A stretch of DNA of 64,000 nt, taken from NCBI GenBank assembly GCA_963712965.1, contig CAVQJZ010000003.1, positions 2,878 to 66,877 on the forward strand, given 5' to 3'. The translations under genes and the position numbers were made by a program. The DNA comes from an uncultured Pseudomonadota bacterium (lineage in GTDB: Bacteria > Pseudomonadota > Gammaproteobacteria > DASZBR01). The notes beneath the pieces are model-generated. The model was not told the origin of the DNA. It searched no databases and worked only from the letters and a program-made list of their open reading frames with translations. This document shows positions 1 through 59,094 of the stretch, piece after piece. The first letter of the stretch is position 1, and every line of letters begins with the position of its first letter.

Positions 1-3000
1 TATTAATCCAGATGTCGGACAAAACAAAGTTTATGGAACCAATGATTCTGCGTTGGGATTTACATATTCAAATACAGGTTTAGTAAATGGCGTCACGCCA
101 CAATATTGGGATGCAACGGGTACGTTAGTTAACGATACTGCAATCAACGATACCATTTCTGGAAACTTAGGTCGTATCTCTGGAGAAAATGTTGGTAATT
201 ACAATTATGTATTAGGTTCTGTTGCTGTTAGCGCACCAAGTAATTATGTTACTAGTTTAACTGCCGGAACATTTGCGATTACCCAAGCCGCATTAAGTAT
301 TAATCCAGATGTTGGGCAAAGCAAAGTTTATGGAACCAATGATTCAGCATTAGGATTTACGTATTCAAATACAGGATTAATTAATGGCGTTACACCACAA
401 TATTGGGATGCAACGGGTACATTAGTAAATGACACAACAATTAATGACACCATTTCTGGAAATTTAGGTCGTATCTCTGGAGAAAATGTTGGTAATTACA
501 ATTATGTATTAGGTTCTGTTGCCGTAAGTGCACCAAGTAATTACGTTACCAGTCTAACTGCAGGAACATTTGCCATTACCCAAGCCGCATTAAGTATTAA
601 TCCCGATGTTGGCCAAAATAAAGTTTATGGAGCCAATGATCCAGCTTTAGGATTTACGTATTCGAATACAGGATTAATTAATGGCGTTACACCACAATAT
701 TGGGATGCAACGGGTACATTAGTAAATGACACAACAATTAATGACACCATTTCTGGAAACTTAGGACGTATATCAGGTGAAAACGTTGGTAATTACAATT
801 ATGTATTAGGTTCTGTTGCTGTTAGTGCACCAAGTAATTACGTTACTAGTTTAACTGCCGGAACATTTGCGATTACCCAAGCCGCATTAAGTATTAATCC
901 AGATGTCGGACAAAACAAAGTTTATGGAACCAATGATTCTGCGTTGGGATTTACATATTCAAATACAGGTTTAGTAAATGGCGTCACGCCACAATATTGG
1001 GATGCAACGGGTACGTTAGTTAACGATACTGCAATCAACGATACCATTTCTGGAAACTTAGGTCGTATCTCTGGAGAAAATGTTGGTAATTACAATTATG
1101 TATTAGGTTCTGTTGCTGTTAGCGCACCAAGTAATTATGTTACTAGTTTAACTGCCGGAACATTTGCGATTACCCAAGCCGCATTAAGTATTAATCCCGA
1201 TGTTGGACAAAATAAAGTTTATGGAACCAATGATCCAGCGTTAGGATTTACGTATTCAAACACTGGATTAATTAATGGTGTTACACCACAATACTGGGAT
1301 GCCACGGGTACATTAGTTAACGACACAACGATTAATGACACCATTTCTGGAAATTTGGGCAGTATCGTCGGGTGAAAACGTTGGTAATTACAATTATGTA
1401 TTAGGTTCTGTTGCTGTTAGTGCACCAAGTAATTACAACACTAGTTTAACTGCTGGAACATTTGCCATTACCCAAGCATCATTAAGTATTAATCCTGATG
1501 TTGGTCAAAGCAAAGTTTATGGAACCAATGATTCAGCTTTAGGATTTACTTATTCAAATACTGGTTTGGTAAATGGCGTCACGCCACAATATTGGGATAG
1601 CACAGGTACATTAGTAAATGGCACAACAATCAACGATACCATCTCTGGAAATTTAGGCAGAACCGCTGGCGAGAATGTTGGCAGCTATGCGTATAACATT
1701 GGATCAGTAGTTGTTAGCGCACCAAGTAACTACAACACTAGTTTAACTGCCGGAACATTTGCGATTACCCAAGCCGCATTAAGTATTAATCCAGATGTCG
1801 GACAAAACAAAGTTTATGGAACCAATGATTCTGCGTTGGGATTTACATATTCAAATACAGGTTTAGTAAATGGCGTCACGCCACAATATTGGGATGCAAC
1901 GGGTACGTTAGTTAACGATACTGCAATCAACGATACCATTTCTGGAAACTTAGGTCGTATCTCTGGAGAAAATGTTGGTAATTACAATTATGTATTAGGT
2001 TCTGTTGCTGTTAGCGCACCAAGTAATTATGTTACTAGTTTAACTGCCGGAACATTTGCGATTACCCAAGCCGCATTAAGTATTAATCCAGATGTCGGAC
2101 AAAACAAAGTTTATGGAACCAATGATTCTGCGTTGGGATTTACATATTCAAATACAGGTTTAGTAAATGGCGTCACGCCACAATATTGGGATGCAACGGG
2201 TACGTTAGTTAACGATACTGCAATCAACGATACCATTTCTGGAAACTTAGGTCGTATCTCTGGAGAAAATGTTGGTAATTACAATTATGTATTAGGTTCT
2301 GTTGCTGTTAGCGCACCAAGTAATTATGTTACTAGTTTAACTGCCGGAACATTTGCAATTACGCAAGCGGCATTAAGCATTAATCCAACAACATCACAAA
2401 GTAAGATTTATGGAACTGATGATCCAGCGTTAGGATTTACGTATTCAAGCACAGGATTAATTAATGGCGTAACACCACAATATTGGGATAGCAACGGGTA
2501 CGTTAGTTAACGACACTACAATTAATGACACCATTTCTGGAAATTTAGGTCGTGCTGCTGGCGAGAATGTTGGCAGCTATGCATACAATCTTGGATCAGT
2601 AGTTGTTAGTGCACCAAGTAATTACATCACAAGCTTAACCGCTGGAACATTTGCGATTACACAAGCGGCATTAAGTATTAATCCTGATGTTGGTCAAAAT
2701 AAAATTTATGGAACCAATGATCCAGCATTAGGATTTACGTATTCAAGCACAGGATTAATTAATGGCGTAACACCACAATATTGGGATGCAACGGGCACAT
2801 TAGTAAATGACACAACAATTAATGACACTATTTCTGGAAATTTAGGCAGAACCGCCGGCGAAAATGTTGGCAGCTATGCGTATAACATTGGATCAGTAGT
2901 TGTTAGCGCGCCAAGTAATTACATCACAAGCTTAACTGCTGGAACATTTGCAATTACCCAAGCCGCATTAAGTATTGATCCCGATGTTGGCCAAAACAAA

Positions 3001-6000
3001 GTTTATGGAACCAATGATCCTGCGTTGGGATTTACTTATTCAAATACTGGTTTAGTAAATGGTGTAACACCACAATATTGGGATGCAACGGGTACATTAG
3101 TAAATGATACAACGATTAACGATACTATCTCTGGAAATTTAGGTCGTGCTGCTGGCGAGAATGTTGGCAGCTATGCGTACAATCTTGGATCAGTAGTTGT
3201 TAGTGCACCAAGTAATTACGTTACTAGTTTAACCGCCGGAACATTTGCCATTACTCAAGCCGCGTTAAGCATTAATCCTGATGTTGGCCAAAACAAAGTT
3301 TATGGAACCAATGATCCTGCGTTAGGATTTACCTATTCAAATACAGGATTAATTAATGGCGTAACGCCACAATATTGGGATGCCACGGGTACGTTAGTTA
3401 ACGACACAACGATTAACGATACCATTTCTGGAAACTTAGGTAGAGCAGCAGGCGAAAATGTTGGCGGCTATGCGTATAACATTGGATCAGTAGTTGTTAG
3501 CGCGCCAAGTAATTATGTTACTAGTTTAACTGCTGGAACATTTGCGATTACCCAAGCCGCATTAAGTATTAATCCAACAACATCACAAAGTAAGATTTAT
3601 GGAACGAATGATCCTGCGTTAGGATTTACGTATTCAAGCACAGGATTAATTAATGGTGTAACACCACAATATTGGGATGCAACGGGTACATTAGTAAATG
3701 ACACAACTATTAATGACACTATTTCTGGAAATTTAGGCAGAACCGCCGGCGAAAATGTTGGCAGCTATGCGTACAATCTTGGATCAGTAGTTGTTAGTGC
3801 ACCAAGTAATTACAACACTAGTTTGACTGCTGGAACATTTGCGATTACCCAAGCCGCATTAAGTATTGATCCCGATGTTGGCCAAAACAAAGTTTATGGA
3901 GCCAATGATCCTGCGTTGGGATTTACTTATTCAAATACTGGTTTAGTAAATGGCGTAACGCCACAATATTGGGATGCAACGGGTACATTAGTAAATGATA
4001 CAACGATTAACGATACTATCTCTGGAAATTTAGGTCGTGCTGCTGGCGAGAATGTTGGCAGCTATGCGTACAATCTTGGATCAGTAGTTGTTAGTGCACC
4101 AAGTAATTACAACACTAGTTTGACGGCTGGAACATTTGCGATTACCCAAGCAGCGTTAAGTATTGATCCAGATGTTGGTCAAAGCAAAGTTTATGGAGCC
4201 AATGATCCAGCGTTAGGATTTACATATTCAAATACAGGTTTAGTAAATGGCGTAACGCCACAATATTGGGATGCAACGGGTACATTAGTAAATGATACAA
4301 CGATTAACGATACTATCTCTGGAAATTTAGGCAGAGCGGCGGGAGAGAACGTTGGTAATTATAATTATGTATTAGGTTCAGTGGCAGTAAGCAGTCCAAG
4401 TAATTACGTTACCAGTCTAACTGCAGGAACATTTGCCATTACTCAAGCGGCGTTAAGTATTAATCCAGATGTTGGCCAAAACAAAGTTTATGGAACCAAT
4501 GATCCTGCGTTAGGATTTACTTATTCAAATACTGGTTTAGTAAATGGCGTAACGCCACAATATTGGGATGCAACGGGTACATTAGTAAATGACACAACGA
4601 TTAATGACACTATCTCTGGAAATTTAGGCAGAACCGCCGGCGAAAATGTTGGCAGCTATGCGTACAATCTTGGATCAGTAGTTGTTAGTGCACCAAGTAA
4701 TTACAACACTAGTTTGACGGCTGGAACATTTGCGATTACCCAAGCAGCATTAAGTATTGATCCCGATGTTGGCCAAAACAAAGTTTATGGAGCCAATGAT
4801 CCTGCGTTGGGATTTACTTATTCAAATACTGGTTTAGTAAATGGCGTAACGCCACAATATTGGGATGCAACGGGTACATTAGTAAATGATACAACGATTA
4901 ACGATACTATCTCTGGAAATTTAGGTCGTGCTGCTGGCGAGAATGTTGGCAGCTATGCGTACAATCTTGGATCAGTAGTTGTTAGTGCACCAAGTAATTA
5001 CAACACTAGTTTGACGGCTGGAACATTTGCGATTACCCAAGCAGCGTTAAGTATTGATCCAGATGTTGGTCAAAGCAAAGTTTATGGAGCCAATGATCCA
5101 GCGTTAGGATTTACATATTCAAATACAGGTTTAGTAAATGGCGTAACGCCACAATATTGGGATGCAACGGGTACATTAGTAAATGATACAACGATTAACG
5201 ATACTATCTCTGGAAATTTAGGCAGAGCGGCGGGAGAGAACGTTGGTAATTATAATTATGTATTAGGTTCAGTGGCAGTAAGCAGTCCAAGTAATTACGT
5301 TACCAGTCTAACTGCAGGAACATTTGCCATTACTCAAGCGGCGTTAAGTATTAATCCAGATGTTGGCCAAAACAAAGTTTATGGAACCAATGATCCTGCG
5401 TTAGGATTTACTTATTCAAATACAGGTTTAGTAAATGGCGTAACGCCACAATACTGGGATGCCACTGGTACATTGGTTAACGACACAACAATCAACGATA
5501 CCATTTCTGGAAATTTAGGCAGAGCCGCTGGTGAAAATGTTGGTAATTACAATTATGTATTAGGTTCTGTTGCCGTAAGTGCACCAAGTAATTATGTTAC
5601 TAGCTTAACCGCCGGAACATTTGCGATTACTCAAGCCGCATTAAGCATTAATCCAACAACATCACAAAGTAAGATTTATGGAACCAATGATCCAGCGTTG
5701 GGATTTACCTATTCAAGCACAGGATTAATTAATGGTGTAACACCACAATATTGGGATGCAACGGGTACATTAGTAAATGACACAACCATTAATGACACCA
5801 TCTCTGGAAATTTAGGCAGAGCGGCGGGAGAGAACGTTGGTAATTATAATTATGTATTAGGCTCAGTTGCAGTAAGCGCGCCAAGTAATTACGTTACCAG
5901 TTTAACAGCTGGAACATTTGCAATTACGCAAGCGGCATTAAGTATTAATCCAACAACATCACAAAGTAAGATTTATGGAACGAATGATCCAGCATTAGGA

Positions 6001-6820
6001 TTTACGTATTCAAATACTGGTTTGGTAAATGGCGTAACACCACAATATTGGGATGCAACCGGTACGTTAGTTAATGACACAACCATTAATGACACTATCT
6101 CTGGAAATTTAGGCAGAGCGGCGGGAGAGAACGTTGGTAATTATAATTATGTATTAGGCTCTGTTGCTGTTAGTGCGCCAAGCAATTACGTTACAAGTCT
6201 AACCGCTGGAACATTTGCGATTACCCAAGCTGCATTAAGTATTAATCCAGATGTCGGACAAAGCAAAGTTTATGGAACCAATGATCCAGCGTTAGGATTT
6301 ACGTATTCAAGCACTGGTTTAGTAAATGGCGTTACACCACAATATTGGGATGCCACAGGTACGTTAGTTAACGACACAACGATTAATGACACCATCTCTG
6401 GAAATTTAGGCAGAGCGGCTGGAGAGAACGTTGGTAATTATAATTATGTATTAGGCTCAGTTGCAGTAAGCGCGCCAAGTAATTACGTTACCAGTTTAAC
6501 AGCTGGAACATTTGCAATTACCCAAGCCGCATTAAGTATTAATCCAGATGTTGGTCAAAACAAAGTTTATGGAACCAATGATCCTGCGTTAGGATTTATA
6601 TATTCAAGCACTGGTTTAGTAAATGGCGTAACGCCACAATATTGGGATGCAACGGGTACATTAGTAAATGACACAACGATTAACGATACACTTTCTGGAA
6701 ATTTAGGCAGAACCGCTGGTGAAAATGTTGGCAGCTATGCGTACAATCTTGGATCAGTTGCTGTTAGCGCACCAAGTAATTATGTTACTAGTTTGACTGC
6801 TGGAACATTTGCGATTACAC
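1..6820 (+). repeat. Tandem array of about 23 copies of a 297-bp (99-codon) unit with 891-bp higher-order periodicity
   Basis: tattaatcca starts at 1, 298, 892, 1784 (=892+891+1 inserted base) and 2081. aatttaggcagaaccgcc occurs at 3730 and 4621, 891 bp apart. The array ends where ..FAITPASLTGSVANQSK.. begins (about 6820). Confidence 0.9.
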
Positions 6821-9300
6821 CAGCATCATTGACTGGATCGGTTGCTAATCAAAGTAAGATATATGGCGCCAACGATCCAACACTTGCAAGCATTGCTGTG
6901 ACATTAAATGGAGTAGTTAATGTGATAGTTACCGATGCCAATGGCAATTCAACACCTATTAATGACACAGGTAATGTTGCAACAACATTATTCTCGTTGA
7001 CTCGTGATCCTGGAGAATTGGTTGCTAGCTACAATATTACTGCGGCAAGTTTCAACGCATTAACAGGAAGTGCAGCAGGTAATTACAATGCGCCGGTATT
7101 CGGTGGTGCACCAACTCTTGCTATTACACAAAAAGCATTAACGGGATCAATTGCAAATCAAAGTAAAGTTTATGGTGCGGATGATCCAGGCGTATCTGGA
7201 ATTAGTGTGAACTTAAGCGGTGTTGTTAATACCAGTGTAACTGATTGGGATGGAAATATTACACCAATTAATGATGCTGGTAATGTCAGTGCAACATTAG
7301 CAGCATTAACAAGAACAGCTGGTGAAAATGTTGGAAGCTATGGCATTCTTAGTTCAATGCTTAATTATTCTGGCAGTGCTTCAGGAAATTACAGTACTAC
7401 GGCAAGTTTAACTAGCAGCCCAATTTTAATGATTACACCAGCAAACTTAACAGGTTCAATTGCCAATCAAAGTAAAGTTTATGGTGCTAACGACCCAACA
7501 TTATCTGGCATCAGTGTAAATTTAGATTTTATTAATCGAACTGTTGCAACCTGGAACGGCAATGTAAGTGTAAATGACACAGGACTTGTTGCAACAACGC
7601 TTGCTTCATTAACACGTGCTGTTGGTGAAACGGTTGCTTCTTATAATATTACCGCGGCAACATTTAATGCGCTAACTGGATCAGCAGCAAGTAATTACAA
7701 TGCACCAGTATTTGGTGGTGCGCCAACTCTCGCTATTACACAAAAAGCATTAACGGGTTCAATTGCAAATCAAAGTAAAGTTTATGGTGCAGATGATCCA
7801 ACACTTTCTGGAATTAGTGTTGCGCTTAACTTTATTAATAGAACGGTTGCGACATGGAATGGTAATGTAACTGTTGATGATACTGGCAATGTTGCAACAA
7901 TGCTTGCTTCGTTAACTAGAGCTGTTGGTGAAACTGTTGCTAGTTACAATATTACTGGTGCAACATTTAATAGTTTAACTGGTAGTGCGGCAGGAAATTA
8001 CAATGCACCAAGCTTTACAGGCACGCCAACACTTACTATTAATAAAGCAAACTTAACTGGATCCATTGCAAATCAAAGTAAAATTTATGGAGTAGATGAT
8101 CCAACTCTTTCAGGAATTAGCGTTACTTTAGGCGGAATAATTAATAATCCAGCGATTGTTACTTGGAATGGAAATGTAAGTATTAATGATACTGGCAATG
8201 TTGCAACAACGCTTGCTTCATTAACCAGAGCAGTAGGTGAAGCTGTTGCAAGTTATAATATTACTGCCGCAACATTTAATGTATTAACTGGAACCGTTGC
8301 AGGAAATTACAATGCGCCAATCTTTATAGGTTCGCCAACATTAACTATTAACAAAGCTAATTTAACTGGCTCGATTGTTAATCAAAGCAAGATTTACGGA
8401 GCTGATGATCCAACACTTTCAGGAATTAGCGTAATGCTCGGTGGAATAATTAATAATCCAGTGATTGTTACTTGGAACGGTAATGTTTCAGTTGATGATA
8501 CTGGTAACGTTGCAACAACATTAGCGTCATTAACACGTGCTGTTGGTGAAGTCGTTGCAAGTTATAATATTACTGCCGCAACATTCAATGCATTAACAGG
8601 AACTTCAGCCGGTAATTACAACGCACCAAGCTTTACAGGTTCACCAACCTTAACTATTAACAAAGCAAACTTAACGGGCTCAATTGCTAATCAAAGTAAA
8701 GTTTATGGCGCAGATGATCCAAGTTTGTCAGGTATTAGTGTGGCATTGAATGGAATTATTAATCGAACTATTTCAACATGGAATGGCAATGTTGGTGTCA
8801 ATGACACAGGTAATGTGAATACAACGTTAGCTTCATTAAGTAGAGTAGTGGGCGAAAGTGTAAATAGCTACAATATTAATTCTGCAACATTCACTGCATT
8901 AACAGGATCTGCTGCAAATAATTATAATATGACCACATTAAATGCTGGATCGATCTTGGCTATTACTAAAGCAAGCTTGTCAGCCACTATTGCTAATCAA
9001 AGTAAAAATTATGGTGCGAGCGATGCAGTTGCTTATCCAGTGATTTTGAGTGGCGTCATTAATAACCTAGCTGTTTCAACATGGAATGGTAATGTAAATA
9101 TTAATGATACTGGTTTAGTGAGTGTCGCATTGGCATCAATTACGCGCGCACCTGGTGAAACAGTCAGCGGCGGACCTTATCTATATACCAGCGCAACGTA
9201 TCAACCAATTGGTGGTAGTGCAGCCGGTAATTATAATCAACCTGCCAATAGTTTAAGTACATCGCCTGCATTAAATATTTTGCCGCTTAATTTAAGTTAT
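6820..9300 (+). repeat. About 9 diverged ~100-codon MBG-type modules (second repeat class of gene 1)
   Basis: Recurrent (I/T)(N/T)(K/Q/P)A.LTGSI.NQSK.YG..DP.L....V.L......V..WNGN......G.V...L.SLTR..GE.V.SYNI......LTGS.AGNYN.P.F.G.PTL.I. I counted nine occurrences, the last degenerate (NILPLNLSYVANAVN..). Confidence 0.75.
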
Positions 9301-9788
9301 GTAGCAAATGCGGTGAATATTTTATGGGGTAATCCAATACCTGCATTATCAGGAACAGTGACAGGTTTTATTCCTGGTGAAAATATGAGTAATGCAACGA
9401 CAGGCATATTAGATTTCACCACGTCTGCAACTATCACAAGTCCAGCAGGTTTATATGCAATTAATGGCTCTGGGTTAATTGCTAATTTTAATAATTATAA
9501 TTTTATACAAGCGCCAAGTAATGCAACGGCGTTAACTATTCAATCAGATACGCCACCTGCGTCACCTATTTCATTACCTGATCCCGCTATGGTTGCAGAT
9601 ATAATAAATACTAGTTTGATTTACAGTGTAGTAAATAATCAAACGTATAATTCTACGCAGAATGCTGATGAAACAGTTGATATCGTTAATCTTAATAAAC
9701 CTGTGGTTAAAAACGTTATTTGTGCTGGCAGCGCGGGTGGTAATCAAACCAGCGGCCAACAATGCGTCACTTTAGCGAGTGGTTCTTA

Positions 9789-9817
9789 GCAGAGACAGGT
9801 TTTAAACCTGTCTCTGC
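9789..9817. repeat. 29-nt perfect palindrome (REP-like hairpin / possible terminator) directly after gene 1
   Basis: gcagagacaggttt-t-aaacctgtctctgc: 14-bp arms and a 1-nt centre, overlapping the stop codon. Same family as 34113-34143 and 34195-34223. Confidence 0.6.
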
Positions 9818-9918
9818 CCCATCATAAAGCCCTCATAGCGCCCAGCGGGTAGGCAATCCCTGGTCTAAACTTACACCTATGAAGTTAAGTAAATGTTACT
9901 TAGCCAGAGGCGGCCAAA

Positions 9919-12900
9919 ATGCATCAAACAACTCATCGTTATCCGTTAAGGAAGATGGTGGTTAGCGTTATTGTAGCGCTGGGGATTTGTTGGTTTGGTT
10001 TAGTCAATGCCGCACCTGTTGGTGGAGATGTTGCAGCAGGTAGTGCAAACATTAATCAAGCAGGAACCACCACAACGATTAATCAAACAACACAAAATGT
10101 TGTCATCAATTGGCAAGAATTTAATACCGCTTCAAATGAAGCGGTTAATTTTATTCAGCCTAACGCAAATGCTGCTGCATTAAATAGAATTAATTCTGGA
10201 TTACCCACACAATTTTTTGGAACGTTAACTGCTAACGGTCATATCTTTATTGTCAATCCCGCCGGCGTATTTTTTGGCGCCTCTTCAAGAATCGATGTCG
10301 GTGGGATTTTGGCAACAACGGCAGATATTCAAAATCAAAATTTCATGAATGGTCATTATCAATTTCAGCAAGCACCAGGTTCATTTAATTCGGTCGTCAA
10401 TGAAGGTGAAATTTATGCCAATGGTTTTGTAGGACTTGTCGCACCTGGTGTCATGAACAATGGTGTGATTCACGCTACTTTTGGAAAAGTTGTTTTGGCT
10501 TCAGGTACTTCATACATTATTGATATGTATGGTGATCAATTAATTCAATTTGGAACAGGCAGTAAAATTTTACAAGCGCCTATTGGTCCTGATGGTAAAC
10601 CCATGAAACATGCGGTAAGTAATAACGGATCAATTTATGCGGATGGTGGAAAGGTATTATTAACTGCTAATGCTGCTTCCGATATTTTAGATAGTGTGAT
10701 TGATACCAGAGGTTATATTCAAGCAGTCAAAGCAAGTGTAGATGGAAATGGATCGGTTATTTTAAGTGGTGGTGATGAAGGTATTGTGACTGTGTCAGGA
10801 AAAATAAAATCAGGCACAGTAAAAGTATTGGGTGACAAAGTAGGATTAATGGATGGTGCAGTGATTGATGCATCAGGTGTTGGTGGTGGTGGCGAAGTTT
10901 TAATTGGTGGTAATTATCAAGGCCAAGGTCCAGAACAAAATGCATCGGCTGTTTATATGAGCCCAACGGCAATAATTAATGCGGATGCTATTGATTATGG
11001 TAATGGTGGAAAAGTTATTTTATGGAGTAATGATTACACAGGTTTTTATGGGAATATTTCAGCACAAGGTGGTGCATTAGGTGGTAACGGTGGATTTGTT
11101 GAAACATCAAGTCACGATAATTTACAAGCATTTGGATTGGTGAATGCAAGTGCTGCCAATGGTTTAGCAGGTACATGGTTATTAGACCCACGCAATGTGA
11201 CTATTAGTTCATCAGCAACAAGCAATGGTGCATTTAATGGAGGTTCGCCAACCAATACATTTACTCCTACAGGTAATAATGCTGTTGTAAATGTTACGAC
11301 ATTAAATACCGCATTGGGTTCTACCAATGTAACTATTAATACCGGTAGCACAGGTGCGCAAGCCGGTACGATTACCGTAAGTAATGCGATTGCTAAAACA
11401 ACAGGAGCAAATACCGCGTTATTAACGTTAACTGCTGCAAGTAATATTATTTTAAATGCGGGTATTTCTGTTTCGTCCGGTGTGTTAAATATAACGTTGT
11501 CCTCTGGCGGTACTATTACGCAAGCGGTAGGCGCCATTATTTCTGGTACGACATTAACTACGTCATCTGTTGGTGGAACGACGCTCACACGAGCAAATAC
11601 AGTCAGTAATTTTAATGCGACAAATATAACCAGTGGTAATATTTCTTTTACCAATAGCGGCGCATTAAATATTACCGGTATTGCGCAAAGTGTAGGTAAT
11701 TTAACAATTGCTAATACGGGTGCGATTACACAAAGCGGTGCCATGACAGTCAGTGGTACGTCATCATTTACGGCTGGCGCAAATCCTATTACGTTAACGA
11801 CCGCAACAAATTCATTAACGGGTGCAATAACATTTAGTAATAGTGGTTCTAATGCAGTTCAATTAACTAACAATAGAGCAACATCGTTAGCTGCTTCAAC
11901 CGTTGGACAAAATTTAACTATTACGAGCGTTGGCGCAATTACACAAACCGGCGCGTTAGTTGTTCCAGGCACATCAAGTTTTACGGCGGGTGCTAATGCA
12001 ATTACCTTAGGTAGTGCAAATAGTTTCACAGGCGCAATTACGTTAAGTAATAGCGGTGCAAACAATGTTTCCTTGACGAATTCTCTTGCAACAATATTAG
12101 CTGCATCAACCATTGGTCAAAATTTAACACTAATCTCAGGTGGTGCAATTACTGAATCAGGTGTGTTAACCATTCCAGGAACGACATCACTTAGAGTAAA
12201 TGCCGCGGGTTCAGATATTTTATTAAATACACAAGCGAATAATTTGACAGGTGCAGTAAGTTTTGCTGGAACGTTGGGCAATATTCGAGATTTTGCATTA
12301 CGTAATATCAATGCTTCAGCAAGTGTGCCAACATTATCTACGTTAACAAGTTTAAGAAACTTAACTTTACAATTTGATAATGCAGCAATCGCATTGCCGG
12401 CAGCAACATTGCATGCTGCAGGTAATGCATCTATTACAGCCGGTGGAGCCATTACACAAAGTGGTGTGTTAACAGTTCCAGGCACATCATTATTTAGTGC
12501 GGGAGCGAATGCAATTACATTGGGCAGCGCCAATGTATTAACGGGTGCAATTACTTTAAGTAATAGTGGTGCGAATAATATTTCGTTAACGAATTCAATT
12601 GCGACCGTATTAGCAGCATCGACAGTCGGTAATAATTTAACGATTAACAGTACGGGTGCCATTACACAAACCGGTGCGCTGACTGTTCCTGGTAGTACAA
12701 CATTAGTAGCTGGCACCGCAAATAATATTACGTTAGGTGGCGCCAATAATTTTAATTCATTGGGCATTACGTCTGCGAATAATGTGGTGATTAATGATAT
12801 TAATGCGATTGCGCTAAATGCAATCACGGCGAATGGTTCATTAACATTAACAGCAGGCGCTGGTATTACAGTCAACGGTGTTATTACGACAGGTGCTGCT

Positions 12901-15900: not shown

Positions 15901-18900
15901 GGCGTAATTAATAACCCAGCAATCGTTACTTGGAATGGCAATGTCAGCGTTAATGATACTGGTAATGTTGCAACCACATTAGCGTCATTAACACGTGCTG
16001 TTGGTGAGGCTGTTGCAAGTTATAATATTACCGCTGCAACATTTAATACATTAACAGGAACTTCAGCTGGTAATTATAATGCACCAAGCTTTACTGGTTC
16101 ACCAACATTAACTATTAATAAAGCTAATTTAACTGGCTCAATTGTAAATCAAAGTAAGATTTATGGCACCAATGATCCATTGTTATCTGGCATTAGCGTA
16201 ACACTTGGTGGTGTAATTAATAACTCGGCAATTGTTACTTGGAACGGCAATGTTTCGGTTAATGATACTGGCAATGTTGCAACAACATTAGCTTCGTTAA
16301 CGCGCGCTATTGGTGAAACCGTTGCTTCTTATAATATTACCGCTGCAACATTTAATGCATTAACTGGATCAGCTGCAGGAAATTACAATGTACCAAGCTT
16401 TAGTGGTAGCCCAACACTCGCTATTAATAAAGCAAACTTAACAGGCTCGATTGTTAATCAAAGCAAGATTTACGGAGCTAATGACCCAACACTTTCAGGA
16501 ATTAGCGTAACACTTGGCGTAATTAATAACCCAGCCATTGTTACTTGGAACGGTAATGTCAGTGTTAATGATACTGGCAATGTTGCAGCAACGCTTGCTT
16601 CGTTAACGAGAGCAGTTGGCGAAACGGTTGCTTCTTATAATATTACCGCCGCAACATTTAATGCATTAACAGGAACTTCAGCGGGTAATTACAATGCACC
16701 AAGCTTTACAGGTTCGCCAACATTAACCATTAATAAAGCAAACTTAACTGGAACTATTGCCAATCAAAGCAAGATTTACGGAGCTGATGATCCAGCATTA
16801 TCTGGCATCAGTGTAAATTTAGATTTCATCAATCGAACTGTTGCAACATGGAATGGTGACGTGAGTGTGAATGATACTGGCAATGTAGCAACAACATTAT
16901 TCTCGCTGACTCGTGACCCTGGAGAATTGGTTGCTAGCTACAATATTACTGCGGCAAGTTTCAACGCATTAACAGGAAGTGCAGCAGGTAACTACAACGC
17001 ACCTGTATTTGGTGGTTCGCCAACTCTTGCGATTACACAAAAAGCATTAACAGGATCAATAGCAGATCAAAATAAAATTTATGGTGCAGATGATCCAAGT
17101 TTAGCAAGCATCACTGTAAATTTAAGTGGTATTGTGAATAGAAGTATTGTTGATTGGAATGACAATAGTACGCCAATTAATGACAATGGTAATGTCAGTG
17201 CGACATTAGCTTCATTAATTAGAGACGCAGGTGAAAATGTTGCAAGCTATAATATTACTGGTTCAACATTGAATTACTCAGGCAGTGCGGCAAGTAATTA
17301 CAGTACGTCGGCAAGTTTAACCGGTAGTCCAATATTGACTATTAATAAAGCTAATTTAACTGGAAGCATTGCTAATCAAAGTAAGATTTATGGTGCGAAC
17401 GACCCAAGTTTATCTGGCATTAGTGTTAATTTGAATTTCATCAATAGAACAGTTGCAACCTGGAATGGAAACGTCAGTGTTAATGATACTGGCAACGTCG
17501 CAACAACATTAGCATCTTTAACCAGAGCAGTTGGTGAAGCAGTGGCAAGTTATAATATTACCGCTGCAACATTTAATGCATTAACAGGAACTTCAGCTGG
17601 TAATTACAACGCACCAAGTTTTAGCGGTAGCCCAACGTTAACAATTAACAAAGCAAACTTAACCGGATCGATTACAAATCAAAATAAAGTTTATGGTGCA
17701 AATGATCCATTGTTATCTGGTATCAGTGTTACTTTAGGTGGAATAATTAATAACCCAGCAATAGTAACTTGGAACGGCAATGTTTCAGTTAACGATACAG
17801 GCAGTGTTGCGACAACACTTGCTTCATTAACACGTGCTGTCGGTGAAGATGTTGCTAGTTACAATATTACTGCCGCAACATTTAATGCATTAACAGGAAG
17901 CTCTGCGGGAAATTATAATGCACCAAGTTTTACAGGTTCACCAACATTAACAATTAGCAAAGCAAACTTAACCGGATCAATCACCAATCAAAATAAAGTA
18001 TATGGTGCGGATGATGCATTGTTATCTGGAATTAGCGTAACACTCGGTGGAATAATTAATAATCCAGCAATTGTTACTTGGAACGGTAATGTTTCAGTTA
18101 ACGATACAGGACTTGTTGCAACAACTCTTGCTTCATTAACTCGTGCAGTTGGCGAAAGCGTTGCTAGTTATAATATTACCGCTGCAACATTTAATAGTTT
18201 AACTGGAATTGCCGCAGGTAATTACAATGCGCCAAGCTTTAGCGGCAGTCCAACATTAATTATTAACAAAGCAAACTTAACTGGCAGCATTGCAAATCAA
18301 ACAAAAGTTTATGGCGCAGATGATCCAGCGTTATCTGGCATTGGTGTAACTTTGAACTTTATTAATAGAACTGTTTCAACTTGGAATGGCAACGTTTCGG
18401 TTGATGATACTGGTAATGTTGCAACAACATTATTCTCGTTGACTCGCGATCCTGGAGAATTGGTTGCTAGCTACAATATTACTGCGGCAAGTTTCAACGC
18501 ATTAACAGGGTCAGCAGCAAGTAATTACAATGCGCCGGTATTTGGTGGTTCGCCAACTCTTGCAATTACACAAAAAGCATTAACGGGATCGATACTAAAT
18601 CAAAGTAAAGTTTATGGTGCGGATGATCCAAGTTTAGCAAGCGTCACTGTAAATTTAAGCGGCATTGTGAATAGAAGTATTACGGATTGGAATGGAAACG
18701 TAACGCCAATTAATGACAATGGTAATGTCAGTGCAACATTAGCTTCATTAATTAGAGACGCAGGTGAAAATGTTGCAAGCTATAATATTACTGGTTCAAC
18801 ATTGAATTACTCAGGCAGTGCGGCAAGTAATTACAGTACGTCGGCAAGTTTAACCGGTAGTCCAATATTGACTATTAACAAAGCTAATTTAACGGGTTCG

Positions 18901-21900
18901 ATTGCTAATCAAAGTAAGATTTATGGCGCAAACGATCCAAGCTTATCTGGCATTAGTGTTAATTTGAATTTCATCAATAGAACAGTTGCAACCTGGAATG
19001 GAAACGTCAGTGTTAATGATACTGGCAACGTCGCAACAACATTAGCATCTTTAACCAGAGCAGTTGGTGAAGCAGTGGCAAGTTATAATATTACTGCTGC
19101 GACATTTACTGTATTAACAGGATCAGCGGCGGGTAATTACAATGCTCCAAGCTTTACAGGTTCACCAACATTAACTATTAATAAAGCAAACTTAACAGGG
19201 ACTATTGCAAATCAAAGTAAGATTTACGGAGCTGATGATCCAACACTTTCAGGAATTAGCGTAACACTCGGTGGGATAATTAATAACCCAGCGATTGTAA
19301 CTTGGAACGGCAATGTGAGCGTTAATGATACTGGCAACGTCGCTACAACATTAGCATCGTTAACCAGAGTAGTTGGTGAAACAGTTGCTTCTTATAATAT
19401 TACCGCTGCGACATTTACTGTATTAACAGGATCAGCGGCGGGTAATTACAATGCATCAAGCTTTACAGGCTCACCAACATTAACTATTAACAAAGCTAAT
19501 TTAACTGGCTCAATTGCAAATCAAAGCAAAACTTACGGTGCTGATGACCCAAGTTTATCTGGAATTAGCGTAACACTTGGCGGAATAATTAATAACCCAG
19601 CGATTGTTACTTGGAACGGTAACGTTTCAGTTGATGATACTGGTAACGTTGCAACAACATTGGCTTCATTAACCAGAGCAGTAAGTGAAACCGTTGCAAG
19701 TTATAATATTACTGCCGCAACATTCAATGCATTAACCGGAACTGCGGCGGGTAATTACAATGCACCAAGCTTTACTGGTTCGCCAATATTAACTATTAAT
19801 AAAGCAAACTTAACGGGTTCAATTGCAAATCAAACAAAAGTTTATGGCGCAGATGATCCATTGTTATCTGGTATCAGTGTTACTTTAGGTGGAATAATTA
19901 ATAACCCAGCAATAGTAACTTGGAACGGCAATGTTTCAGTTAACGATACAGGCAGTGTTGCGACAACACTTGCTTCATTAACACGTGCTATCGGTGAAGA
20001 TGTTGCTTCTTATAATATTACTGCAGCAACATTTAATTCACTTGCTGGTAGTGCAGCAGGAAATTACAATGCGCCAAGCTTTAGCGGCAGCCCAACATTA
20101 ACTATTAATCCAGCAAACTTAACTGGTTCGATTGCAAATCAAAATAAAATATATGGTGCAGATGATCCATTGTTATCTGGTATAGCAGTTAACTTGGGTG
20201 GAATAATTAATAATCCAAGTGTTTCAACTTGGAATGGAGTTGTATCGATTAATGACACAGGACTTGTAGCAACAACATTAGCATCTTTAACCAGAGCAGT
20301 TGGCGAAACCGTTGCAAGTTATAATATTACCGCTGCAACATTTAATGCATTAACAGGAACTTCAGCCGGTAATTACAACGCACCAAGTTTTAGCGGTAGC
20401 CCAACGCTTACTATTAACAAAGCAAACTTAACCGGATCGATTGCAAATCAAAATAAAGTTTATGGTGCAAATGATCCATTGTTATCTGGTATCAGTGTTA
20501 CTTTAGGTGGAATAATTAATAACCCAGCAATAGTAACTTGGAACGGCAATGTCAGTGTGAATGACACAGGGCTTGTAGCAACAACGCTTGCTTCATTAAC
20601 ACGTGCTGTCGGTGAGAATGTTGCTAGTTATAATATTACTGCGGCAAGTTTCAATGCATTAACAGGCGGTGCATCAAGCAATTACAATGCGCCAAGCTTT
20701 AGCGGCAGCCCAACACTTACTATTAATCCAGCAAACTTAACTGGTTCGATTGCAAATCAAAATAAAATATATGGTGCAGATGATCCATTGTTATCTGGTA
20801 TCTCAGTAACCTTGGGTGGAATAATTAATAATCCAAGTATTTCAACTTGGAATGGAGTTGTATCGATTGACGATACTGGTAATGTTGGAACAACACTCGC
20901 TTCATTAACACGCGCTGTCGGTGAAGATGTTACTAGTTACAATATTACTGCCGCAACATTTAATGCATTAACAGGAAGCTCTGCGGGAAATTATAATGCA
21001 CCAAGCTTTGCTGGCTCGCCAACTCTTACTATTAACAAAGCAAACTTAACGGGATCGATTGCAAATCAAACCAAAACTTATGGTGCCAATGATCCAGGTT
21101 TGTCAGGCATTAGTGTGGCATTAAATGGAATTATTAATCGAACTGTTTCGACATGGAATGGCAATGTTGGTGTCAATGATGTAGGCAATGTGAATACAGC
21201 GTTAGCTTCATTAAGTAGAGCAGTGGGCGAAAGTATAAATAGCTATAATATTAATTCTGCAACATTCACGGCCTTAACAGGATCTGCTGCAAATAATTAT
21301 AATATGACCACATTAAATGCTGGATCGACCTTGGCTATTACTAAAGCAAGTTTGTCAGCGACTATTGCTAATCAAAGTAAAAATTATGGTGCAAGTGATC
21401 CGCTCATTGCAACAATTCCGGTAATTTTAAATGGCGTTATAAATAATCCAGCAGTAGTAACATGGAATGGTAATGTGAATATTAATGATACTGGTTTAGT
21501 ACATATATCGTTGGCATCACTCACGCGCGCACTTGGTGAAACAGTTAGCGGCGGACCTTATTCATATACCAGTGTAACGTATCAATTATTGGGTGGTAGT
21601 GCAGCCGGTAATTATAATCAACCTGCCAATAATTTAAGTACATCGCCTGCATTAAATATTTTGCCGCTTAATTTAAGTTATGTAGCAAATGCTGTGAATG
21701 TTTTAATGGGTAATCCAATACCTGCATTGTCTGGAACAGTGACGGGATTTATTCCAGGAGATAATATTGCTAATGCAACGACAGGAACATTAATGTTTAC
21801 TACGGCTGCGACATCAGGAAGTCCAGCAGGTTCGTATGCAATTAATGGCTCTGGATTGATTGCTAATTTTAATAATTATAATTTTATACAAGCGCCAGGT

Positions 21901-22155
21901 AATGCAACGGCATTGACTATTCAATCAGGTGTACCACCTGTACCGCCAGTGCCACCAGTAAATCCAGCGCAAGTTGCTGATATTCTCACTATCTGGCAAG
22001 GTTCTTCAGGTACTAATGAAGGTACGGATACCAGTTATTCAATAAATCCAAATTATGCATTTGATCATTTGGCAACAACAAGTCATGATAAATCTTTAAC
22101 CTCTGTCTGTGTCGGCAGTGGTGATCAACAACGATGTGCATCAGTGGGCAGTTAG
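9919..22155 (+). CDS. TpsA-family (filamentous-haemagglutinin-like) giant exoprotein, 4078 aa: signal peptide + TPS domain + beta-helix + about 28 MBG-type modules + Cys-pair tail
   Basis: AGAGG lies about 10 nt upstream of the ATG. N-terminal signal peptide (..VIVALGICWFGLVNA/AP). TPS-domain hallmarks: NINQAGTTTTINQTTQNVVINWQEFNT, AAALNRINSGLPTQFFG, ANGHIFIVNPAGVFFG. These are followed by GGFVETS..WLLDPRNVTI and ~68-aa beta-helix periods (ITL..AN.L/FTGAITxSNSG.N...). From about aa 1160 come YG..DP / GE.V.SYNI modules. Confidence 0.9.
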   Translation: MHQTTHRYPLRKMVVSVIVALGICWFGLVNAAPVGGDVAAGSANINQAGTTTTINQTTQNVVINWQEFNTASNEAVNFIQPNANAAALNRINSGLPTQFFGTLTANGHIFIVNPAGVFFGASSRIDVGGILATTADIQNQNFMNGHYQFQQAPGSFNSVVNEGEIYANGFVGLVAPGVMNNGVIHATFGKVVLASGTSYIIDMYGDQLIQFGTGSKILQAPIGPDGKPMKHAVSNNGSIYADGGKVLLTANAASDILDSVIDTRGYIQAVKASVDGNGSVILSGGDEGIVTVSGKIKSGTVKVLGDKVGLMDGAVIDASGVGGGGEVLIGGNYQGQGPEQNASAVYMSPTAIINADAIDYGNGGKVILWSNDYTGFYGNISAQGGALGGNGGFVETSSHDNLQAFGLVNASAANGLAGTWLLDPRNVTISSSATSNGAFNGGSPTNTFTPTGNNAVVNVTTLNTALGSTNVTINTGSTGAQAGTITVSNAIAKTTGANTALLTLTAASNIILNAGISVSSGVLNITLSSGGTITQAVGAIISGTTLTTSSVGGTTLTRANTVSNFNATNITSGNISFTNSGALNITGIAQSVGNLTIANTGAITQSGAMTVSGTSSFTAGANPITLTTATNSLTGAITFSNSGSNAVQLTNNRATSLAASTVGQNLTITSVGAITQTGALVVPGTSSFTAGANAITLGSANSFTGAITLSNSGANNVSLTNSLATILAASTIGQNLTLISGGAITESGVLTIPGTTSLRVNAAGSDILLNTQANNLTGAVSFAGTLGNIRDFALRNINASASVPTLSTLTSLRNLTLQFDNAAIALPAATLHAAGNASITAGGAITQSGVLTVPGTSLFSAGANAITLGSANVLTGAITLSNSGANNISLTNSIATVLAASTVGNNLTINSTGAITQTGALTVPGSTTLVAGTANNITLGGANNFNSLGITSANNVVINDINAIALNAITANGSLTLTAGAGITVNGVITTGAAGDSLVLSGTTFTNTAGASALSPGTGRFLVWSGNPASDNRGGIVYNFKQYNATYGVSTVLGTGNGFLYTLAPTITANLTGTASRSYNATTTTSSLLSNILSTSGAVDSDSIVINTLSGIFATKNVGTNININSVSGTLSATNGSATVYGYQLNTTPGGTTNIGTITAAPITISSNSGQTKVYGSNDPAGAATAYSLTAGSIFTDSLTGSMGRAVGETVGNYNFTQNTVTVNDGNGGNNYAITFNGATNPFVITAKSLTGSIVNQSKIYGADDPTLSGIAVTLNGKVNAIVTDINGNNTVINDTSNVAATLASLTRAAGETVASYNITAGTFNALTGSAAGNYSAPTFSGAPTLTINKANLTGSIANQSKTYGANDPTLSGIGVTLNFINRTVSTWNGNVSVNDAGLVATTLASLTRAVGETVASYNITAATFNALTGTSAGNYNAPSFTGSPTLTINKANLTGSIANQTKTYGANDPLLSGISVTLGGIINNPAIVTWNGNVSVNDTGLVATTLASLTRAVGEAVASYNITAATFNALTGTSAGNYNAPSFTGTPTLTINKANLTGSIANQTKTYGANDPLLSGISVTLGGVINNPAIVTWNGNVSVNDTGLVATTLASLTRAIGESVASYNITAATFNALTGTSAGNYNAPSFTGSPTLTINKANLTGSIANQTKTYGANDPLLSGISVTLGGVINNPAIVTWNGNVSVNDTGLVATTLASLTRAVGETVASYNITAATFTVLTGSAAGNYNAPSFTGSPTLTINKANLTGTIANQSKIYGADDPTLSGISVTLGGIINNPAIVTWNGNVSINDTGNVATTLASLTRAVGEIVASYNITAATFTALTGSAAGNYNAPVFGGAPTLAITQKALTGSIANQSKVYGADDPLLSGISVSLSGIVNRSITDWNSNSTPINDNGNVSATLASLIRDAGENVASYNITGSTLNYSGSAASNYSTSASLTGGPILTINKANLVGTIANQSKVYGADDPSLSGIGVTLGVINNPAIVTWNGNVSVNDTGNVATTLASLTRAVGEAVASYNITAATFNTLTGTSAGNYNAPSFTGSPTLTINKANLTGSIVNQSKIYGTNDPLLSGISVTLGGVINNSAIVTWNGNVSVNDTGNVATTLASLTRAIGETVASYNITAATFNALTGSAAGNYNVPSFSGSPTLAINKANLTGSIVNQSKIYGANDPTLSGISVTLGVINNPAIVTWNGNVSVNDTGNVAATLASLTRAVGETVASYNITAATFNALTGTSAGNYNAPSFTGSPTLTINKANLTGTIANQSKIYGADDPALSGISVNLDFINRTVATWNGDVSVNDTGNVATTLFSLTRDPGELVASYNITAASFNALTGSAAGNYNAPVFGGSPTLAITQKALTGSIADQNKIYGADDPSLASITVNLSGIVNRSIVDWNDNSTPINDNGNVSATLASLIRDAGENVASYNITGSTLNYSGSAASNYSTSASLTGSPILTINKANLTGSIANQSKIYGANDPSLSGISVNLNFINRTVATWNGNVSVNDTGNVATTLASLTRAVGEAVASYNITAATFNALTGTSAGNYNAPSFSGSPTLTINKANLTGSITNQNKVYGANDPLLSGISVTLGGIINNPAIVTWNGNVSVNDTGSVATTLASLTRAVGEDVASYNITAATFNALTGSSAGNYNAPSFTGSPTLTISKANLTGSITNQNKVYGADDALLSGISVTLGGIINNPAIVTWNGNVSVNDTGLVATTLASLTRAVGESVASYNITAATFNSLTGIAAGNYNAPSFSGSPTLIINKANLTGSIANQTKVYGADDPALSGIGVTLNFINRTVSTWNGNVSVDDTGNVATTLFSLTRDPGELVASYNITAASFNALTGSAASNYNAPVFGGSPTLAITQKALTGSILNQSKVYGADDPSLASVTVNLSGIVNRSITDWNGNVTPINDNGNVSATLASLIRDAGENVASYNITGSTLNYSGSAASNYSTSASLTGSPILTINKANLTGSIANQSKIYGANDPSLSGISVNLNFINRTVATWNGNVSVNDTGNVATTLASLTRAVGEAVASYNITAATFTVLTGSAAGNYNAPSFTGSPTLTINKANLTGTIANQSKIYGADDPTLSGISVTLGGIINNPAIVTWNGNVSVNDTGNVATTLASLTRVVGETVASYNITAATFTVLTGSAAGNYNASSFTGSPTLTINKANLTGSIANQSKTYGADDPSLSGISVTLGGIINNPAIVTWNGNVSVDDTGNVATTLASLTRAVSETVASYNITAATFNALTGTAAGNYNAPSFTGSPILTINKANLTGSIANQTKVYGADDPLLSGISVTLGGIINNPAIVTWNGNVSVNDTGSVATTLASLTRAIGEDVASYNITAATFNSLAGSAAGNYNAPSFSGSPTLTINPANLTGSIANQNKIYGADDPLLSGIAVNLGGIINNPSVSTWNGVVSINDTGLVATTLASLTRAVGETVASYNITAATFNALTGTSAGNYNAPSFSGSPTLTINKANLTGSIANQNKVYGANDPLLSGISVTLGGIINNPAIVTWNGNVSVNDTGLVATTLASLTRAVGENVASYNITAASFNALTGGASSNYNAPSFSGSPTLTINPANLTGSIANQNKIYGADDPLLSGISVTLGGIINNPSISTWNGVVSIDDTGNVGTTLASLTRAVGEDVTSYNITAATFNALTGSSAGNYNAPSFAGSPTLTINKANLTGSIANQTKTYGANDPGLSGISVALNGIINRTVSTWNGNVGVNDVGNVNTALASLSRAVGESINSYNINSATFTALTGSAANNYNMTTLNAGSTLAITKASLSATIANQSKNYGASDPLIATIPVILNGVINNPAVVTWNGNVNINDTGLVHISLASLTRALGETVSGGPYSYTSVTYQLLGGSAAGNYNQPANNLSTSPALNILPLNLSYVANAVNVLMGNPIPALSGTVTGFIPGDNIANATTGTLMFTTAATSGSPAGSYAINGSGLIANFNNYNFIQAPGNATALTIQSGVPPVPPVPPVNPAQVADILTIWQGSSGTNEGTDTSYSINPNYAFDHLATTSHDKSLTSVCVGSGDQQRCASVGS
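13390..21928 (+). repeat. Array of about 28 MBG-type ~100-codon modules inside gene 2, with higher-order duplications
   Basis: I counted module starts (..ITISSNSGQTKVYG.., ITAKSLTGSIVNQSK, then about 25 x IN(K/P)ANLTGSI.NQ.K.YG or ITQKALTGSI..) plus a terminal degenerate module. acaacattattctcg at 16891 and 18424 marks a 1533-bp higher-order repeat. Confidence 0.8.
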
Positions 22156-22158
22156 CAA

Positions 22159-22401
22159 ATGGCTAAAAAAAAATTAGTATCCAAAGTAATAATGATAGTT
22201 TTTAGTTTATCTTGGTTAAATCCAGCGCATGCAGATCCCGATCTTTTGGGAGCAGTGGTTGATACCAGAGGATATGTGCAAGCTAAGAAAGCTGAAGTCG
22301 ATAAAAATGGCCATGTTGTTTTGCGTGGCAGTGATGATAACAACGCTGCGACGGTGCCAAGAAAGAATCAAGATAAAACGTCTATCAGTGCTAATCGTTA
22401 G
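22159..22401 (+). CDS. Small signal-peptide ORF (80 aa) resembling a collapsed TpsA: leader plus distal TPS-domain segment; possibly a gene relic
   Basis: The ATG is 3 nt after the gene 2 stop, with no clear SD. MAKKKLVSKVIMIVFSLSWLNPAHA resembles the gene 3 leader (VVMMILSLLWANLADA). DLLGAVVDTRGYVQAKKAEVDKNGHVVLRGS aligns with gene 2 DILDSVIDTRGYIQAVKASVDGNGSVILSGG and gene 3 NVVENVIDMRGFIEAKTASIDKQGSIILSGG. Confidence 0.45.
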   Translation: MAKKKLVSKVIMIVFSLSWLNPAHADPDLLGAVVDTRGYVQAKKAEVDKNGHVVLRGSDDNNAATVPRKNQDKTSISANR

Positions 22402-22423
22402 CTAAGGCTTGAATAGTAGAATG

Positions 22424-22447
22424 GCTAAAAGACAATTGTCTTTTAGC
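22424..22447 (+). terminator. Hairpin, candidate intrinsic terminator after the gene 2 / mini-ORF unit
   Basis: gctaaaagac-aatt-gtcttttagc: perfect 10-bp stem and 4-nt loop. A T-run (ggctttttt) follows about 10 nt later. The stem is AT-rich, so strength is uncertain. Confidence 0.45.
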
Positions 22448-22613
22448 TATAAAATGGCTTTTTTCCAAGGTATTCTCTTCGCCGTTGTGAACGACGGTAA
22501 TGAACAGATGTTGTCATGACAGCCTCGCAATGACATTTCCCGCGAAAATTCACATCCTAGTCTATATTTTCCTTATGGCTCTAGAAAATCTCTAGGCCAA
22601 GACGAGGCAATTC

Positions 22614-37468: not shown

Positions 37469-37547
37469 TTTTTTACACCTTTTCAAGTCCACGTATTATG
37501 AAGTATAGACGATATTAAGAGCAGATAAGGGAGAGATCCCCCCTTTT

Positions 37548-51109: not shown

Positions 51110-51152
51110 CTTCGGATAGCAATTATATTCGTCAAAAAAATAGGTGGAAACT

Positions 51153-55084: not shown

Positions 55085-55088
55085 AAAG

Positions 55089-59071: not shown

Positions 59072-59094
59072 AAAATCTATAAATCTCGGGGTTT

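Follow-up and report, generated by a model that had tools for sequence, protein, structure and literature searches.

A tandem array of giant TpsA paralogs, probably surface-tethered fibrillar adhesins, in an uncultured gammaproteobacterium of putative Legionellales affinity

What do three giant genes lying head to tail in the genome of an uncultured gammaproteobacterium make, and do their products stay on the cell that secretes them? The genes lie on contig CAVQJZ010000003.1 of GenBank assembly GCA_963712965.1, of which a stretch of 64,000 nucleotides (positions 2,878 to 66,877 of the forward strand; hereafter the window) was analysed. A preliminary description, made by a model from the letters of the sequence, had reported three same-strand reading frames as TpsA-like exoproteins of two-partner secretion (TPS), and the open reading frame (ORF) calls confirm their coordinates. 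We propose that the locus encodes tandem paralogous, type Vb, surface-tethered fibrillar adhesins that would be exported by an Omp85-type TpsB encoded probably upstream of the window, a reading that draws on analogy with known adhesins and to which we assign a rough probability of 0.7. The features of the locus, in positions of the window, are:

1-9789, + strand: gene 1, 3' part, with its 5' end beyond the window start (ORFs and Pfam matches to MBG_2)
~1367, + strand: first frame break of gene 1, an extra G outside homopolymers, located by comparing the units 297 bp up- and downstream
2490, + strand: second frame break of gene 1, an extra A (GGGAT-A-GCAACG) outside homopolymers, located by comparing neighbouring repeat units
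9532-9786, + strand: gene 1 tail, a Pro-rich linker and a C-x13-C loop with 7 residues after it (Cys encoded at 9721-9723 and 9763-9765)
9919-22155, + strand: gene 2, intact TpsA of 4078 aa (ORF call)
9919-10014, + strand: gene 2 putative Sec signal peptide, ~aa 1-32, ending ...LVNA/AP (from reading the sequence)
10027-10809, + strand: gene 2 TPS secretion domain, aa 37-297, with the NPAG motif at aa 113 (Pfam, TIGR01901 and PDB matches)
11296-12948, + strand: gene 2 DUF5649 beta-helix shaft, ~aa 460-1010 (PF18886, E 4.3e-58, 6 stretches)
13126-13326, + strand: gene 2 YDG domain, aa ~1070-1136, at the beta-helix/MBG junction (PF18657, 25.2 bits against a cut-off of 25, segment scanned alone)
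13405-21903, + strand: gene 2 stalk of 28 tandem MBG_2 modules, aa ~1163-3995 (PF18676, E 4.2e-96)
21904-22152, + strand: gene 2 tail, a PPVPPVPPV linker, a predicted short helix, a disordered stretch and a C-x8-C hairpin with 5 residues after it
22159-22401, + strand: putative TPS relic, an ORF of 80 aa in the 458-bp spacer between genes 2 and 3 (BLASTP E 4e-13)
22614-27842, + strand: gene 3, intact TpsA of 1742 aa, EtpA-like in having a DUF5649 passenger that is all beta-helix after its TPS domain
24912-26046 and 25938-27075, + strand: gene 3 internal direct duplication, two overlapping 1.14-kb copies of 97% identity (blastn self-comparison)
27615-27839, + strand: gene 3 tail, ending in a C-x11-C loop plus 3 residues (Cys encoded at 27792-27794 and 27828-27830)

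That genes 2 and 3 begin with a TPS secretion domain, as the preliminary description had recognised, is borne out by two profile collections. PF05860 matches gene 2 with an expectation value (E) of 1.3e-28 (101 bits, first 500 aa scanned alone) and gene 3 with an E of 3.5e-27 (96 bits), the cut-off being 33.5 bits, and TIGR01901 scores 68.6 for gene 2 and 67.4 for gene 3 against a cut-off of 29.1. The N-terminus common to the two genes had been put at ~300 aa; it is indeed shared, but it is longer than that, with 68% identity over ~450 aa, reaching ~11270 in gene 2. Among solved structures the best match of gene 2 is to EtpA, in which aa 7-1010 align with EtpA residues 42-1058 (8vba, E 5.5e-71); aa 35-401 match the HMW1 pro-piece (2odl, E 3.1e-39) and aa 32-289 match HxuA (4i84/4rm6, E ~1e-27). 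Gene 3 likewise matches EtpA over aa 29-511 (8vba, E 8.2e-57), and the EtpA entries matched also include 8cpk. No structure of FHA, HpmA or CdiA matches gene 2 or 3 at E <= 0.01, and the TPS domains are accordingly assigned to the HMW1/HxuA family, which is distinguished from the FHA-type family (PMC5422565). The N-terminus of gene 1, and hence its TPS domain, lies outside the window. Besides genes 1-3, the Pfam scan took in the plausible ORFs of 150 aa or longer, with five exceptions; the ORFs of 450 aa or longer were all scanned apart from metG, which was identified by eye only. The hmmscan program seems to drop the TPS domain from giant repetitive proteins: the domain was missed in gene 2 scanned whole and recovered from its N-terminus alone, and Pfam negatives on giant repeat proteins thus call for rescans of sub-segments. 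In four related loci (L005, L008, L012 and L013) the TPS domain is likewise not listed by hmmscan, despite a tblastn match to the TPS query in each.

Downstream of the TPS region, gene 2 consists of a beta-helix shaft, a single YDG domain and a long stalk. When gene 2 is scanned whole, DUF5649 (PF18886) is found with an E of 7.5e-48 and the YDG match is weak. In the stalk the motif K-x-Y-G-x-x-D recurs in 27 copies that are 101-103 aa apart, which together with a terminal variant module (aa 3921-3995) make 28 modules, in agreement with the earlier count of about 28. The repeat units average ~76% DNA identity, with a maximum of 93%. An AlphaFold2 model of the last 330 aa (32-sequence alignment; mean predicted local distance difference test score, pLDDT, 80.6) contains three modules rich in beta-structure, the first with a pLDDT of 65-94 and the other two above 90 over most of their length, which are followed by a predicted short helix, a disordered stretch and a predicted C-terminal beta-hairpin that carries its Cys on opposite strands (codons 22108-22110 and 22135-22137) and has a pLDDT of 55-59. 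Prediction of two modules with the internal repeats as the sole alignment gave a pLDDT of 40. A Foldseek search of the C-terminal model against the PDB returned nothing at E <= 1e-3, its weak top matches being the tandem-domain adhesins InlK, SraP and Lar_0958, and the Pfam scan found no family match in the tail.

Gene 1 had been described as sharing the passenger modules and C-terminal region of gene 2, which the comparison upholds: MBG_2 (PF18676) is found in both (in gene 1 with an E of 2.3e-138, over 20 stretches), and the 3' 2.7 kb of gene 1 are 77.6% identical in nucleotide sequence to the 3' end of gene 2. Its visible part comprises 32 modules, namely 23 units of exactly 297 bp (99 aa), 8 of 101-103 aa and a terminal variant. 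The 297-bp units have a median nucleotide identity of 85%; eight pairs are at least 98% identical, and two pairs are identical. The gene is not the one open frame that it had been taken for. It is read in frames 2, 0 and 1 (ORFs 53-1375, 1335-2510 and ~2491-9789, the last with an ORF call of 3025-9789) because of the single-base insertions at ~1367 and 2490, of which the former gives a stop at 1373-1375 and the latter a stop at 2508-2510. Gene 1 as sequenced is either a pseudogene or the result of assembly errors in near-identical repeats; unlike it, the housekeeping genes of the window, as translated, show no frame breaks.

The preliminary description had all three proteins built from MBG-type modules, which holds for genes 1 and 2 but not for gene 3, since the gene 3 passenger consists of DUF5649 (13 stretches, E 1.8e-155) and has no MBG_2 match in Pfam. 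The 97% identity between the copies of its internal duplication suggests recent intragenic recombination. In the spacer that precedes gene 3, the 80-aa ORF has a signal-peptide-like start followed by 38 aa that are 58% identical to residues 250-287 of the gene 2 TPS domain, and to judge from this resemblance it is the relic of the 5' end of a fourth or recombined tpsA gene. Both the relic and the duplication had gone unnoticed before, as had a third feature, the C-terminal Cys pairs, which is key to the mechanism proposed below.

The mature chains of genes 1-3, as far as visible, contain two Cys each, both located in the last 25 residues and laid out as C-x13-C-x7 in gene 1, C-x8-C-x5 in gene 2 and C-x11-C-x3 in gene 3. 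By a rough calculation that assumes random placement, the chance that both Cys fall in the last 15 of ~4000 residues is on the order of 1e-5 per protein. The gene 3 tail can be aligned weakly with those of genes 1 and 2, and a weak layout is common to all three, in which a Pro-rich linker is followed by V-[AG]-[DE]-I-[LI] and the Cys loop. A terminal Cys pair is also found in other MBG-tailed proteins and in other TPS relatives. In HMW1 and HxuA, the C-termini stay in the periplasm, where a disulfide loop locks them in the TpsB pore (PMC5422565). The C-terminal anchor of CdrA holds a cysteine hook that sits in CdrB, together with a TAAG site for LapG at 2105-2106, some 50 residues before the end of the protein (bioRxiv 10.64898/2026.07.13.738186). 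By analogy, the Cys pairs of genes 1-3 would match in position the disulfide hook that tethers HMW1, HxuA and CdrA in the TpsB pore. A different C-terminal class is seen in many small TpsAs (700-1200 aa) of the same TPS clade (loci L002-L006 and L018-L029), in which a proline-rich stretch is followed by a conserved terminus of the form ...P-[PR]-K-Q-D-R-N or ...K-P-Y-R-N and is distinct from the Cys pair.

Of the known systems, CdrA, a c-di-GMP-regulated TpsA fibrillar adhesin of Pseudomonas aeruginosa regarded as a 'Periscope protein', is the closest in overall design to genes 1 and 2. The MBG_2 and YDG families were defined in the paper on Periscope proteins, where CdrA is cited for its stalk of MBG_2 repeats (PMC8201768), and a recent account divides CdrA into a signal peptide, a cleaved N-terminal fragment (43-437), an N-terminal domain, an ADEPT tip, a stalk of 3-21 repeats across strains and the C-terminal anchor, with a measured length of ~70 nm and the N-terminus distal (bioRxiv 10.64898/2026.07.13.738186). 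Compared by this published architecture, the proteins described here share with CdrA the TPS region, a beta-rich N-terminal part that would be the distal tip, a tandem MBG_2 stalk (genes 1 and 2, not gene 3) and a short C-terminal module with a Cys pair (genes 1-3). They differ from it in the number of stalk modules, which is 28 in gene 2 and at least 32 in gene 1 and makes the stalk twice as long; in having YDG where CdrA has ADEPT, a jelly-roll domain of the tip that binds sugar; in lacking a C-terminal TAAG LapG site and an adjacent TpsB; and in occurring as three tandem paralogs, one of them stalk-less. Between the TPS domain and the stalk of gene 2, Pfam shows just DUF5649 and YDG, although the ADEPT family may be absent from the Pfam copy used. 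The DNA identity of only ~76% among the repeats of gene 2 is a further difference. Relative to Periscope proteins in general, stalk adhesins of variable length whose tandem domains are highly identical in DNA and vary in copy number among strains, the near-identity of units is partial in gene 1 and lower in gene 2, as seen in one strain. The suggestion of the preliminary description that the architecture may be uncharacterised is therefore not sustained: the combination of a TPS domain, an MBG_2 stalk and a C-terminal Cys pair is already known from CdrA, and the disulfide anchor is shared by HMW1 and HxuA.

With HMW1/HMW2 and HxuA of Haemophilus influenzae, the proteins have in common the TPS subfamily and, as far as the tails can be compared by description, two Cys in the last ~20 residues; they differ from them in the MBG_2 stalk of the passenger and in the lack of an HMW1C-type glycosyltransferase or TpsB gene at the locus. 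HMW1 is N-glycosylated by an HMW1C-type enzyme. Gene 3 is closer to EtpA of enterotoxigenic Escherichia coli, a secreted beta-helical lectin adhesin that is encoded in etpBAC with etpB upstream and is N-glycosylated by EtpC. EtpA has ~1770 aa, and gene 3 (1742 aa) resembles it in size, in its all-beta-helix repeats and in its large internal duplications. EtpA is released and glycosylated by EtpC, whereas no glycosyltransferase is in view here and the Cys pair suggests tethering. Genes 1 and 2 would thus represent the CdrA design with an HMW1/EtpA-type N-terminus, and gene 3 would represent an EtpA-like design with an HMW1-like Cys tail.

Relatives of the TPS domains were found in GTDB genomes and JGI metagenomes at <= ~50% identity; the matches listed in the TPS and MBG searches are ~800 aa or less, many of them named partial, so that full architectures are not visible there. 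Of 113 related loci, 36 carry the TpsB gene as the immediate upstream neighbour of tpsA and 10 as its immediate downstream neighbour. Other loci in which tpsA genes stand in tandem and no TpsB is visible include L031 (from Polaromonas sp. YR568, with three ORFs), L044 and L085. The closest relative among genomes (L005) has a passenger with 16 DUF5649 stretches, like gene 3, and a short fragment (P0351) carries DUF5649 and MBG_2 together. Our own MBG profile found no MBG in the 113 loci, a weak negative because the profile recovers just 40 of 120 Pfam-positive matches.

On the basis of these comparisons, we propose that each product would reach the periplasm by means of its Sec signal peptide and that its HMW1/EtpA-type TPS domain would be recognised there by the POTRA domains of an Omp85-type TpsB, the gene of which most likely lies upstream of gene 1. 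The chain would then thread out with its N-terminus first and fold outside the cell as a beta-helix formed by the TPS domain and DUF5649, which in genes 1 and 2 would be continued by ~28-32 or more MBG_2 beta-domains forming a rod. The last ~80 residues would be retained, with the proline-rich linker spanning the TpsB pore and a disulfide-stapled C-terminal hairpin acting as a stopper on the periplasmic side, so that the adhesin would remain attached to the cell and carry its N-terminal beta-helix at the distal end. Scaled from CdrA, for which ~70 nm correspond to ~14 repeats, the distance of the gene 2 tip from the cell surface would be of the order of 100 nm or greater. A tip of this kind would also be presented by gene 3, but with no stalk beneath it. 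The function is likely to be adhesion to surfaces, host cells or matrix glycans, or cell-cell aggregation.

Several observations weigh against this proposal. Five TpsBs of related loci, confirmed by Pfam, were combined into a profile that scores relatives with E values as low as 1e-299; in the six-frame translation of the 64-kb window its best E was 1.8. There is no TpsB in any frame, as the preliminary description had stated for the region downstream, and the existence of a cognate TpsB is an assumption. Neither LapG nor LapD nor an HMW1C-like or EtpC-type glycosyltransferase occurs among the scanned ORFs of the window. The C-terminal hairpin is modelled with low confidence, and a profile of the tail, run against 1.84 billion representatives, recovered gene 3 itself only. 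A conserved anchor family as a sequence claim was rejected on that result, and since the tail forms no detectable sequence family, the analogy with the known anchors rests on the position of the Cys pair and not on homology. A TAAG or AA site is absent from the last 110 or more residues of all three tails; TAAG strings occur inside folded domains, at aa 3275 of gene 2 and aa 465 of gene 3. LapG-regulated release was rejected as well, because the tails carry no TAAG-type site, and LapG thus probably does not control release here, unlike in CdrA. Finally, the frame breaks of gene 1 and the TPS relic show ongoing decay and recombination at the locus.

A rival reading is that the proteins are released as soluble, EtpA- or FHA-like exoadhesins or haemagglutinins, the Cys pair having no anchoring role or the tail being clipped after export. 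The N-termini are closest to those of EtpA, a secreted adhesin, the tail lacks homology to any detectable family, and no LapG-type site for regulated release is present. We nevertheless consider release unlikely, given that all three paralogs have exactly two Cys, placed at the extreme C-terminus of otherwise Cys-free chains of 1.7-4 thousand residues, and that the same arrangement is required for tethering in HMW1, HxuA and CdrA. Less likely still is a decaying, non-functional locus or recombination reservoir, in which gene 1 would be a pseudogene, the relic a lost paralog and TpsB perhaps lost. The two frame-breaking insertions of gene 1, both outside homopolymers, the 80-aa TPS relic and the lack of a TpsB in 64 kb are in keeping with such decay, but no break interrupts the 12.2 kb of gene 2 or the 5.2 kb of gene 3, whose signal peptides, TPS motifs and Cys pairs are conserved, both indels could be assembly errors in near-identical repeats, and the TpsB gene of relatives is usually upstream, which is outside the window here. 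The unbroken translation of the window's housekeeping genes also speaks against this explanation.

A CdiA-type locus for contact-dependent inhibition (CDI), or another toxin-delivering TpsA locus, is highly improbable and was rejected for lack of toxin, VENN or immunity features, as the preliminary description, which favoured adhesins over CDI, had concluded. What recommends it is a general resemblance, that of giant TpsA proteins in a multi-gene array. Pfam shows no ShlB/POTRA_2, toxin domain, PT-VENN or Fil_haemagg FHA repeats among the scanned proteins of the window, and the single VENN string in genes 1-3 lies inside the TPS domain of gene 3, away from the C-termini, near which no VENN-type motif is found. 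The tails have only ~80 aa, the spacers after genes 1, 2 and 3 (129, 458 and 113 bp, the second containing the TPS relic) hold no small immunity-like ORF, and the TPS domains are of the HMW1/EtpA type, not of the FHA/CdiA type. The earlier statements that a VENN-type motif, a toxin tip and an immunity ORF are all missing thus agree with these results.

Tethered fibrillar adhesins remain the reading that we prefer. A more far-reaching version of it would see in the three paralogs a deliberate 'multi-height' display served by one distal TpsB, in which one type of tip, the HMW1/EtpA-type beta-helix, sits right on the surface in gene 3 and on a stalk of at least 100 nm in genes 1 and 2, each protein is held by a LapG-independent cysteine hook, and the near-identical repeats and frameshifts of gene 1 together with the relic reflect ongoing recombination that switches stalk length and switches between anchored and released forms. 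We consider this version unlikely. If true, it would describe a host-attachment organelle with no studied counterpart in Legionellales, an amoeba-associated lineage. On the preferred reading, the locus is an unusually large example of a known adhesin type and presents no new secretion or adhesion principle. It would extend the CdrA/HMW1-type design of beta-helix tip, MBG_2 stalk and cysteine hook to an uncultured Legionellales-related lineage, offer a natural comparison of stalked and stalk-less paralogs with a common secretion domain, and make genes 1-3 test cases for LapG-independent tethering. For annotation, such genes would be better labelled CdrA-like fibrillar adhesins than generic 'filamentous haemagglutinin' or CDI proteins.

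The N-x-S/T sequons were also counted and compared with those of shuffled sequences, with 165 against 111 +/- 9 in gene 2, 81 against 60 +/- 6 in gene 1 and 52 against 47 +/- 5 in gene 3. The excess in genes 2 and 1, which gene 3 does not show, is not taken as evidence for glycosylation, since counts over repeats are not independent and none of the scanned ORFs of the window encodes a glycosyltransferase.

The host appears to be an uncultured Legionellales-related gammaproteobacterium of a poorly sampled lineage, as inferred from the neighbours of TypA, the G+C content of the window (~39%) and its ankyrin, Sel1 and TPR genes. TypA is <=82% identical to any other protein apart from that of one strain at 97%, and its named neighbours are a Legionellales bacterium (78%) and Rickettsiella (77%). 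Eukaryote-like repeat proteins with ankyrin, Sel1 and TPR repeats are typical of intracellular Legionellales. Downstream of gene 3, Pfam identifies ORFs for NUDIX, AFG1/ZapE, ABC-2 transporter, ferrochelatase, Mrp/ApbC, dCTP deaminase, POT transporter, RadA, CysK-like, Def, carbonic anhydrase, integrase, ankyrin, Sel1 and TPR proteins. MetG and TypA were identified by their translations, TypA also by how its homologues are named. Other features of this region are:

30991-32019, + strand, and 33057-34091, + strand: two proteins of 342 and 344 aa, flanking a LysR-type gene (32035-32928, - strand)
36098-37492, - strand; 51144-52703, + strand; and 58196-60003, + strand: eukaryote-like repeat proteins (ankyrin-repeat, TPR and two Sel1-repeat)
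53855-55219, - strand: tyrosine-integrase-like ORF (weak Pfam matches just under the cut-off)

In the 4 kb after the tyrosine-integrase-like ORF, the G+C content falls to ~35%, and this stretch may be a small island; scans of the 64-kb window for tRNA genes and Rfam families found nothing, including near this ORF. The 342- and 344-aa proteins on either side of the LysR-type gene may be paralogs. Both are negative in Pfam and contain many hydrophobic segments, and they are reminiscent of membrane or effector proteins of Legionellales.

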